A DNA stretch of 60,894 bases from Escherichia phage P13374, in the sequence record NC_018846.1; one strand, 5' to 3'. Shown piece after piece: positions 48,001 to 51,000 of the stretch; position 1 is the stretch's first letter; every line of letters starts with the position of its first letter. The position numbers were made by a program.

Positions 48001-51000
48001 GATCATACCAGGAAGATTAAGAATCCGGCAGCTTCTGCCAGAACGGATATCAGGGCGAATTACTGGAGTCTGTTAGCGGGGCCTTCATGGCGGGTTAATC
48101 AGTACATGAGTTTATATGCGATGGCAGGGATGGGCGTTGCTAAAGTTAGCGCTGACCTGAAAATTAAGGACAATATTAACAGTAGTGGCGGATTTTCTGA
48201 AAGCAACAGCACGAAAAAAACCTCCCTTGCGTGGGCTGCAGGTGCACAGTTTAACCTGAATGAGAGTGTTACACTGGATGTGGCTTACGAAGGTTCCGGC
48301 TCTGGCGACTGGCGCACGAGTGGCGTTACTGCTGGCATTGGCCTGAAATTCTGACCTGTATCCGGTAACCGTTTACTACCCGCTGTGATGGCGGGTTTTT
48401 TATTGCCCGTACAGGGCAAAAACCGTAAATTATGCGTGGATGCCTTTCGGCTGATGGCTGGAGGGTGAACCTGAAGGCCTGATGTGGAAAGGCCCCGAGT
48501 CAACTTAACGTTAACCCGAGGCCCTAACACTTCGTACCTTAAGCAAGTAGAAGGTTAGCGCCTCTCTGTAAAAGGAGTCAAGCGCTATGTCGCAAAAATC
48601 GCTTATCACCGTCACAATTTGCATGACGGTTATCTTCACCATCTGGATGTTGCACGGTTCACTGTGTGAGTTCCGGCTGAATTTGTGGGGAGCGGAGTTT
48701 GCGGCGTTCTTACAGTGTAAGCAGTAGGAAAACCGCGACGGGGACGAGAGTCCCCGTCAACTGGTTGCTGAGGTTCAGCCGATATGGCACCCGTTTCAGG
48801 TGAGAGAATGAACGATAAAATTCTCTGGTATATGCAGCGTGTTGTGAGAAATTCCCGCAACCCTGAATTTATGAATGAAGTTAAAGACGCCTGCCTTAAA
48901 AAGCAGGCGTTTTGTTTTGAGGCACCTGATGGCTTTTTGGTGCTGCGTTCTGTGCTCAGTGCTGATGGTATCCCTTATGTTCTGGTGTTGCTGGGCGTGT
49001 GTACGGGGAGTAACAGCGTTGAGCGTTACCTGCCGGAGGTGAAGACATTAACCCATCTGGCTGGCGGACGCTGGGCTGAGTTCCATACGGCAAGGCGGGG
49101 ATTTATCCGGCTGGGAAAACGACTGGGCTTTGAGCGAATGCCGGATGATGAGGATGGCTTCATGGTGTTCAGGATAGCGGTCTGACTGCTACAGTTTTCA
49201 TCATTGTGTTTAAACCAACATTGTAATTCACATTCTGACCCTGCTCCGGCAGGGTTTTTTGTTATCCAGGGGGCCATTATGGGTGGAAGTAAAGGCGGTG
49301 GTGATACCAAAGTAAAACCAACAGCAGCGCAAATAGCACAGGAAGAAGTGGCCTGGAAAGGGTGGCAGGATTACAAAAATATCCTCCGCCCGGCTGAAGA
49401 TAACTTCATGGAAAAGGTCGATGACCTTAACAGTGAGCAGCAGTACGACAATATCGCTGGCACAACAAATCTTGGTTATCAGAAACAGTTTGGTGAAGCG
49501 CGAAGGGAGCTGGCGGGTAATCTTGCTCAGTCCGGTGTTGACCCGTCCAGTGGTCGCTTTAACGCGGTAATGAATGCGAACCAGAGTGATCAGGTAACCG
49601 GGCAGATTGACACAACCACACGGGGGCAGGTATCGCAGGCAGATAAGTATGTTGCCGGGCTACAGGATGTTGCCGCTCTCGGTTCTGGTCAGAAGGCGGA
49701 TGCGTTACAGAGTTTTAACTCTCTGGCAGACAGCAGTCTGGCAAAAGCTAAATCGGATGCACAGGCGGCGTTTACGAAACAGCAGGGGCGAGCCTCTCTT
49801 GTTGGCGCTGGTCTGGGTGCGGCAGGTGCATATGCGATGCATAAGGCTGGCGGTAGCGGAGGAAGTGGCGGTGCTAAAACACCTGGCACCGGCGCTAATG
49901 CCATTCAGCATCAGGCTCAGAACTGGAGACTGTGATTATGGAGTACGGTAAATACGAAACACTTGCAAGATACGGTTATACCGGAGCAGCCCGCCCTCAG
50001 GGGGACTGGCAGACATCCGCAGCGCTGACCCGCCAGCAATACGACGACTGGCGCACCAGATATTTACCCCGTGTAGCAAGGCTGGCTGACCTTGGGGAGA
50101 ACAACAGTCTGATGAATGCACAGCTTGCACGGGTGGGAGGCCTTGCCACTTCCAGTCTCCGTACAGCGCAGATGGCGCAGGATAACCAGATGGCGAGATA
50201 CGGGGTAAACCGCCCGGATAATCCCGACAGTAATACGCTGGGGTTACGTAATGCCCTGGCAATTGCTGGCGCGAAAAATGGTATCCGTGAAGCCGAACAG
50301 GATCGCCAGATGAATATTCTGACGGGGGCTTCTGCACCGGCAAGACAGAAACTGAGTGTTGGCGGCCAACTGGTGGCAGCGTAAGGGGGCAATATGGGAT
50401 ACGGTTTACTGGATATTGCAAATCAGTCGCGGCGTGAGGCATTACAGGGAATAAGTGACGCAGACAGACGACGTGAAGAAATTGAGGCTGCGAACAAACA
50501 GATGGCGGCGCAACAGAAAGCGCAGAACAAGCAGAATATCGGTACGGGCATTGGTACGGGGGCGGCTATTGGCGCATCCGTTGGTGGTCCTGTTGGTGCT
50601 GTTGCTGGAGCAGTAATTGGCGGCATTGCTGGTTCTTTGTTTTAAGGAGTGGTGAATGAGCGGATTTGCACAGGGGTTACTTGCCGGATTCAGCACCGTT
50701 GACCAGGCAATGACCCGTCGTAAGGAGCTTGGTCTGCGTGAAGCACAGCTTGCCCGGCAACAGAAAAATAACGAGCGCGATTTTGAGTTTGCGCAGTCTC
50801 AGTTTGAACATAATAAAAACGTTGATCAGCGGAACTTTGATTACAGAGCCAAAGTTGACGACCGTAATTATGCACTGAAGGAAAGGGAGTTTAACGCTAA
50901 CCAGAATTACCGGAATGCGTCACTGGGTATGGAGCAGCAGCGACTCCAGTTGCAGAAATACAACCAGCGACGGCTTGAGTATAACGATATGATTGCCCAT

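Follow-up and report, generated by a model that had tools for sequence, protein, structure and literature searches.

A stretch of 60,894 nucleotides from Escherichia phage P13374 (record NC_018846.1; hereafter the window) contains, between the Ail/Lom gene lom (47620-48354; PF06316, 113 bits) and the next annotated gene, which begins at 48784, a small open reading frame (ORF) of the hok toxin family. The ORF extends on the plus strand from an ATG at 48587 to a TAG at 48725-48727, encodes 46 amino acids (aa; MSQKSLITVTICMTVIFTIWMLHGSLCEFRLNLWGAEFAAFLQCKQ) and is preceded by a Shine-Dalgarno (SD) sequence, AAGGAG (48572-48577), located 9 nucleotides (nt) 5' of the start codon. A preliminary description of this DNA had proposed a 46-aa ORF at 48587-48727 with a strong SD and the layout of the Hok family, lying in a 380-bp gap, and each of these statements was borne out: the ORF is present exactly as described, the distance from the lom terminator to the gene at 48784 is about 380 bp, and alignment to profile hidden Markov models supports the family assignment. 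Based on the evidence presented below, it is considered likely that the segment of ~390 bp at 48403..48792 (the hok cassette) is a type I toxin-antitoxin module of the hok/sok type, carried as an accessory insert by an O104:H4-type Stx2a phage, with the switch and the role proposed here. Around the toxin ORF, a segment of 436 bp is shared at 100% identity with O104:H4 chromosomes and with the Stx2a phages P13363, P13368, phiON-2011 and phi191, and the window is therefore assigned to an Stx2a-converting phage of the O104:H4 type; the same segment is 99.8% identical to phages 933W and VT2-Sakai.

The ORF encodes an inner-membrane toxin of the Hok/Gef family. The Pfam profile PF01848 (HOK_GEF) matches it over positions 6-42 of 42 with 33.2 bits (E 4e-8; gathering cutoff, 22 bits) and PHROG 251 ("MokW-like host killing") does so with E 2.8e-24. 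Residues C12, T14, L26, C27, E28 and E37 align with C16, T18, L30, C31, E32 and E41 in R1 numbering and C44 occupies the C/Y48 position of the family; all the residues kept in more than 80% of the 1264 Hok peptides catalogued in a 2025-26 preprint (Escalera-Maurer et al., bioRxiv 10.1101/2025.08.07.668861) are found in the toxin, which also has the size of ~50 aa and the hydrophobic N-terminal helix typical of the family. Relatives of 46 aa with 59-98% identity and the frame kept occur in E. coli, Shigella and Salmonella, and all those with a name in their source are labelled "Hok/Gef family protein". Among the NCBIfam models the best match is HokA (NF007290, E 9e-10), but the score of 38.4 bits does not reach its equivalog cutoff (89 bits), and NF007279, the model of the Hok subfamily, is missed as well (22.7 bits, cutoff 73). 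The toxin therefore belongs to a separate subfamily outside the named equivalogs. To our knowledge this subfamily is absent from K-12.

The gene had been presented as unannotated, which is correct for the original records of 933W and VT2-Sakai, where only the neighbouring ORF is annotated, but not for RefSeq/PGAP (WP_000078907.1, "Hok/Gef family protein") nor for several phage records, in which the product appears as "small toxic polypeptide", "prophage host toxic membrane protein" or "MokW-like host killing". Fourteen Hok/Gef genes had already been counted in O157:H7 Sakai (Fozo et al., 2010). In the catalogue of Escalera-Maurer et al., the high-abundance cluster 72 includes the peptide 72_1589 (Table S2), which is identical to the product of the ORF, and the implied novelty has to be given up. 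This peptide was cloned as pAZ3-72_1589 among 45 homologs placed under an arabinose promoter, 42 of which were toxic on induction in E. coli, and it is not among the three named as non-toxic. The induction experiment that had been suggested to examine toxicity has thus in effect been performed with an identical peptide, as the coding sequence (CDS) alone and overexpressed. The available part of the preprint does not take up the position of the gene after lom in phages, and literature searches with the protein accession and the product names of the phage records returned nothing useful. No match to the leader motif GGUUAGCGCCUC was obtained in the supplementary mRNA alignments and covariance models of the preprint, a search that is inconclusive because alignment gaps could split the motif. 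The ORF is consequently a known gene of a known family, annotated, catalogued and with its peptide already assayed for toxicity; as a discovery it matters little.

The elements predicted around the toxin gene are collected in Table 1. Consensus folding with RNAalifold of 11 and then 14 E. coli and Salmonella copies yielded a structure with 95.4% of the cells paired, compared with 39-44% when partners were slid, and with 22 pairs showing compensatory changes, compared with 2-6; none of 500 column shuffles reached the observed values. As the structure was derived from the same 14 sequences, the percentage paired is favoured by construction, and the compensatory counts are the stronger evidence for the fold. 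Pairing across the copies amounts to 97% for the tac/fbi helix (helix 1), 94% for the long-range helix (helix 6; 11 pairs, 5 compensatory), 100% for the SD-masking hairpin (helix 7) and 99% for the 3' stem-loop (helix 12; 9 pairs, 5 compensatory), and by analogy with the last stem-loop of the truncated R1 hok mRNA this one likely protects the end of the processed mRNA. The full-length RNA of the window (48438-48795) folds with its ends paired (z -6.5), the first 63 nt of the mRNA form a predicted tac/ucb hairpin (z -3.1), and the complement of the leader hairpin corresponds to the terminator stem of the Sok-like RNA discussed below. In the truncated RNAs of 933W and of copies from P2-like prophages, the predicted fold contains the tac stem and a GAGGC/GCCUC stem and the SD hairpin is dissolved. 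The leader fold-back structures suspected in the preliminary description are in this way present in silico and supported by covariation. The Rfam model RF01794, a model of the hok leader on the sense strand that reaches in an R1-type control (87.2 bits) from the start of the mRNA to the AUG of hok, matches the window at 48438-48600 with 28.2 bits (E 1e-3) and sister copies with 42.8-51 bits (E 1e-7 to 1e-9).

Table 1. Features of the hok cassette and its flanks in the window (coordinates in nucleotides of the window).
Feature	Coordinates	Strand	Remarks
lom intrinsic terminator, left boundary of the cassette	48378..48401	+	Terminator-like hairpin ACCCGCTGTGATGGCGGGT followed by TTTTTTATT
Putative hok promoter	48403..48431	+	-35 TTGCCC (48403-08), 17-nt spacer, -10 TAAATT (48426-31); inferred start ~48438
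tac-like 5' element, GGAUGCCUUUCGGCUGA	48438..48454	+	Pairs with 48775-48792 in single-sequence and consensus folds
Candidate Sok-like antisense RNA, ~60 nt	48481..48544	-	Single-stranded 5' tail and strong hairpin; ends by analogy with R1 Sok
ucb-like GGAAAGGCCCC (48486-96) and leader hairpin GGCCCCGAG...CCCGAGGCC (48491-48523)	48486..48523	+	Helix 5, 96% paired in 14 copies
GAGGCCCUAAC, counterpart of the R1 mok SD region	48518..48528	+	No start codon; alternative pairing with 48554-48564
5' arm of the long-range helix, CCUUAAGCAAGUAG	48537..48550	+	Covers most of the Sok target; pairs with 48760-48773
Candidate Sok-like promoter	48552..48581	-	-35 TTGACT (48581..48576), 18-nt spacer, -10 TAACCT (48557..48552)
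hok SD-masking hairpin	48556..48587	+	UAGCGC/GCGCUA outer stem; CUCU pairs with GGAG of the SD; takes in the A of the AUG
hok-family toxin CDS, 46 aa	48587..48727	+	Hok catalogue 72_1589; RefSeq WP_000078907.1; Pfam and PHROG matches
3' stem-loop, GACGGGGAC-GAGA-GUCCCCGUC	48737..48758	+	Likely protective end of the processed mRNA
3' arm of the long-range helix (dcb-like)	48760..48773	+	Consensus fold
fbi-like element, UCAGCCGAUAUGGCACCC	48775..48792	+	Complementary to the 5' end; cassette homology stops here
Downstream ORF, PHROG 610 (unknown function)	48808..49185	+	PHROG 610 profile 1-124/124 aligns to residues 1-125
First strong terminator 3' of the cassette	49237..49262	+	GACCCTGCTCCGGCAGGGTT followed by TTTTGTTATC

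Alignment of the copies also delineates the putative hok promoter, as the motif TTGCC(C/G)-17-TA(A/G)ATT is kept in most E. coli copies despite differing flanks and precedes the invariant GG(G/A)UGCCUUU. On the opposite strand, the candidate Sok-like promoter sits where TTGCGC-17-TATCCT, which we take to be the Sok promoter, occurs on the antisense strand of the R1-type locus; the element reads TTGCTC-17-TAACCT in the E. coli P2-type copies and TTTACT-17-TATCCT in three of the four Salmonella copies. The candidate RNA, with a predicted start ~7 nt past the -10 (48544->48481), folds with -31.3 kcal/mol (z -6.4; none of 200 shuffles was as stable), and its predicted 5' tail plus strong hairpin has the shape of R1 Sok. 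As to the Sok-like antisense RNA suggested for this gap, a promoter-like element and a hairpin do occur in silico at the proposed site and the Rfam score falls short (28 bits, compared with 59), so that such an RNA at this cassette is regarded as a plausible but unproven candidate.

When the three frames of the window were scanned with near-cognate starts included, no ORF beginning at ATG, GTG or TTG was found to cross the hok start as a mok frame would; the same scan applied as a positive control to an R1-type plasmid locus retrieved its mok ORF. In the alignment with the R1-type locus the R1 mok start CCCUAUG, located after GAGG, corresponds to CCCUAAC in the window. The R1-type locus of the IncFII plasmid pMTY1886 (sequence L014, 294-509) has its mok ATG after GAGG and in the same frame as hok, so that its leader ORF reads as Hok with an N-terminal extension instead of an overlapping, out-of-frame Mok; the RefSeq annotation is limited to a shortened Hok CDS at 408-509. 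A leader ORF starting at the GATGTGG motif (ATG 48482 or GTG 48484) was considered as a mok-like coupling device and rejected, as its frame and its end vary among the 14 copies. In the window it ends at a UAG (48556-58) within the SD hairpin, and the start motif is invariant in the E. coli copies and absent in three of the four Salmonella copies. Neither Pfam nor the Hok catalogue defines the family by mok (bioRxiv 10.1101/2025.08.07.668861). If confirmed, the mok-less architecture would mean that the hok conformational switch can work without translational coupling.

By BLAST, 1675 of 5426 complete E. coli genomes were found to contain the cassette region, some of them as many as 8-9 times, and 196 phage records have it too. 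Homology with hok cassettes from other contexts begins directly past the lom terminator, and in divergent copies (77-87% identity) it is limited to positions 48418-48792 of the window, a unit of ~375 bp. P2-like prophages of E. coli and Salmonella carry this unit at their end, 3' of ogr; it was also found 3' of lom in Stx phages, in an O157 island near the urease genes and in a lambda-like prophage between gpJ and a tail-fibre gene. From these sequence comparisons, the hok cassette behaves as a portable module and is best viewed as a moron, inserted between lom and the accessory genes that follow it. Among the loci collected for comparison, L004, L008, L010, L011, L013 and L016-L019 carry the cassette ~190 bp past ogr, others are located at L005 2668-2808, L006 2669-2809 and L015 1501-1641, and at some of them it adjoins other toxin genes (an Ibs toxin in L015, hicAB in L017).

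In the P2, O-island and lambda-type contexts a hairpin with a T-run follows fbi after ~20-40 nt; the Stx-phage copies run directly into the next ORF, and no terminator-like site was found between 48792 and 48808 in the window. For lack of such a terminator in the Stx-phage cassette, hok and the PHROG 610 ORF are possibly co-transcribed. The RefSeq start of this downstream ORF (ATG 48784, 133 aa) falls within the hok fbi element; the ATG at 48808 (125 aa) has GGTGAGAG upstream. Since the PHROG 610 alignment corresponds to the latter version, the annotated start is probably 8 codons too long. On the minus strand the hok 3' stem-loop (48736..48759) is followed by CGGTTTTCC and resembles a weak terminator for transcription from the right, and a second hairpin, inside the downstream ORF (48887..48910), is terminator-like on both strands. 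Elsewhere in the window (4689-4778, 12984-13067, 13903-14090, 23592-23840 and 25249-25508) matches above the Rfam gathering score comprise sRNA-Xcc1 (twice), C4 antisense RNA, isrK, three tRNAs, STnc100 and AsxR, the last being an anti-sRNA (small RNA) adjoining stx2.

The cassette has to be distinguished from hokW-sokW, the only hok locus of Stx phages with a tested role, described in Sakai prophage 5 (Sp5; Takada et al., 2021, PMC8621323). Identity of the two was considered and rejected: the primers and the sokW probe of that study encode another peptide, of 51 aa, with no match after lom. The annotation of VT2-Sakai has hokW, mokW and sokW at the right end, on the minus strand and past a very large ORF. 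The equivalent region of the window retains a hokW remnant at 60438..60554 (minus strand; flanks 60380..60720), in which the 5' half of the CDS is ~90% identical to VT2-Sakai, one base is missing (frameshift), a 76-bp deletion removes the C-terminal half and the 3' untranslated region is retained. Its leader has been replaced by unrelated sequence with no mokW or sokW, and an Rfam scan of the remnant gave no sok-type match. RefSeq labels this spot "Hok/Gef family protein" in phi191. Just upstream of the remnant, a 2806-aa ORF (51952..60372, plus strand), the counterpart of VT2-Sakai H0150 (933W L0134), takes up the greater part of the right arm. Two distinct hok loci are thus carried by phages of the 933W/Sp5 type, of which only hokW has been studied, and in the O104:H4-type phage no hok locus other than the cassette after lom is intact. 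In Sp5, the sokW RNA vanishes after mitomycin C, whereupon HokW, whose production requires RecA, is found in the inner membrane ~1 h before endolysin; deletion of hokW-sokW delayed growth arrest by ~40 min and halved phage release, and hokW had no effect on growth without induction (Takada et al., 2021). The deletion strain still had the cassette after lom, and the value of separating the two loci lies in that the partial phenotype of the deletion may be buffered by this second cassette.

The proposed switch would operate as follows. A weak constitutive promoter (48403-48431) would make a structured mRNA of ~355 nt from ~48438, in which the 5' tac element would pair with the 3' fbi element (48775-48792) and the long-range helix (48537-50 with 48760-73) would cover the antisense target; this full-length mRNA would be inert because the SD and AUG are locked in a local hairpin. 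Trimming of the 3' end back to the stem-loop at 48737-58 would allow tac to refold onto GGAAAGGCCCC (48486-96), and the freed GAGGCCCUAAC (48518-28) would pair with GUUAGCGCCUC (48554-64), opening the SD hairpin and exposing the hok ribosome site directly, with no conserved mok frame to couple translation. The Sok-like RNA of ~60 nt (~48544->48481) would anneal to the leader and have the effects known from R1, a block of expression and decay. On prophage induction the antisense RNA may be lost or outcompeted, for instance by Q-antiterminated late transcription that passes through lom in the sense direction, and Hok would then depolarise the membrane and advance lysis. A helper role in the timing of lysis on induction is favoured, based on the analogy with hokW-sokW and on the orientation of the cassette, which is that of the late genes.

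Several observations weigh against a functional hok/sok-type module. There is no mok frame, unlike every experimentally studied hok locus. Both promoters come from homology and alignment and are weak matches; a simple consensus scan with a threshold of 9 returned no sigma-70 site, the hok promoter having been missed because it agrees at 8 of 12 consensus positions. Conservation of the Sok-like promoter is not independent evidence, because the same bases also form the sense-strand SD hairpin of hok. The RF01794 gathering score of 59 is reached neither by the window nor by the sister copies, the matches being significant but sub-cutoff, which suggests that the leader represents a divergent subfamily. 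The A at 48440 gives an A.C mismatch with fbi and the predicted truncated fold of the window stays closed. No terminator follows fbi in the Stx-phage context, which makes the 3' end and the processing step uncertain. Finally, the toxicity assay used the CDS alone, overexpressed and with a foreign SD.

With regard to the role, a functional cassette could instead serve addiction or defence, either killing cells that lose or silence the prophage or aborting infection by other phages, the latter once host transcription has ceased and the antisense RNA, being short-lived, has decayed. R1 hok/sok mediates post-segregational killing and lowers T4 plating, and the cassette resides at prophage ends and in islands, adjoining other toxin-antitoxin genes (Ibs, HicAB). 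Furthermore, hok genes were reported to be about four-fold enriched in prophages, although, judging by a section heading of the same preprint, they are not enriched near defence systems (bioRxiv 10.1101/2025.08.07.668861). Moreover, hokW, the sole Stx-phage hok examined experimentally, had no growth effect in uninduced cells and raised phage release. An addiction or defence role is therefore regarded as possible but on the doubtful side.

A second alternative is that the cassette of this phage is a silenced or decaying hok copy, a passenger with an intact ORF from which no Hok is made because tac carries the G->A change, the terminator of the cassette has been lost and mok is absent. Position 48440, which is position +3 of the mRNA within tac, is A in the window and G in 933W and the 13 other aligned copies, this being the sole difference from 933W within 476 bp; the A is confined to the O104:H4/phi191-type lineage, and an exact match to the 65-nt stretch was obtained in only 10 of 159 phage records. 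The truncated fold with A retains the SD hairpin, with a minimum free energy of -123.3 kcal/mol and a probability of 0.30 that the AUG is unpaired, compared with -127.8 kcal/mol and 0.56 with G. In R1, substitutions at G4, C5 and T6 of tac make the tac stem unstable and toxicity is lost as a result. The missing terminator 3' of fbi, the clear decay of the other hok locus of the phage (hokW) and the report that the chromosomal hok loci of K-12 are mostly inactive point in the same direction. On the other hand, the cassette is identical, apart from 48440, to those of 933W/Sp5-type phages, the ORF, SD, hairpins and antisense elements are all intact, and compensatory changes throughout the family maintain the RNA structure; the effect of the single base is a prediction of energy models only, with a difference of 4.5 kcal/mol. 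A silenced copy is thus considered improbable. As for the ORF being a chance open frame within an intergenic spacer, which its mere 46 codons and its omission from the original 933W and VT2-Sakai annotations might suggest, this is already refuted by a Pfam score above the curated threshold, a PHROG E-value of 3e-24, a frame kept in E. coli, Shigella and Salmonella copies (59-98% identity) and the identity with peptide 72_1589, reported as toxic.

Returning to the hok/sok-type module with a role in lysis timing, the observations can be joined in a wider model, put forward here as speculative and rather unlikely to hold in full. Hok cluster 72 would use a mok-independent switch, in which tac/ucb refolding frees the old "mok SD" box and strips the 5' arm off the hok SD hairpin; the terminator-less cassette of Stx phages, under Q-antiterminated transcription, would be a lysis-timing device backing up hokW; and the O104:H4 outbreak-type phage, besides its loss of hokW, would have its remaining hok attenuated by the G3A change in tac, with consequences for when lysis occurs and for the release of toxin. 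If this were true, induction would swamp the antisense RNA in Stx phages.

Compared with the paradigm, hok/sok (parB) of plasmid R1, the toxin of the cassette shows 30% identity (E 9e-7), with the conserved residues common to both, and has 46 aa ending in LQCKQ, whereas R1 Hok has 52 aa ending in AYESGK. The leader is homologous (RF01794), the predicted tac-fbi fold-back, the ucb/dcb-type alternative pairings and the likely protective 3' stem-loop are shared, and a candidate antisense promoter and hairpin occupy the equivalent place. The differences are that R1 has mok, whereas no conserved mok frame exists in the 14 copies of the cassette, that the predicted switch, which parallels the tac/ucb and mok-SD/dcb rearrangement of R1, would unmask the hok SD directly, and that the Stx-phage copy has no terminator of its own. 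A second hok-type locus of the same Stx-phage family, hokW-mokW-sokW of Sakai prophage 5, VT2-Sakai and 933W, encodes a Gef/RelF-like protein of 51 aa (MKQQKAM...DYESEK) and lies on the opposite strand at the right prophage end, with an annotated mokW. With respect to HokA and the other chromosomal hok genes of K-12, HokA provides the nearest NCBIfam model, but the score is far under its equivalog cutoff. Cluster 72 of the Hok catalogue contains the same peptide; its study covered coding sequences only and explicitly left aside Mok, Sok and the mRNA elements.

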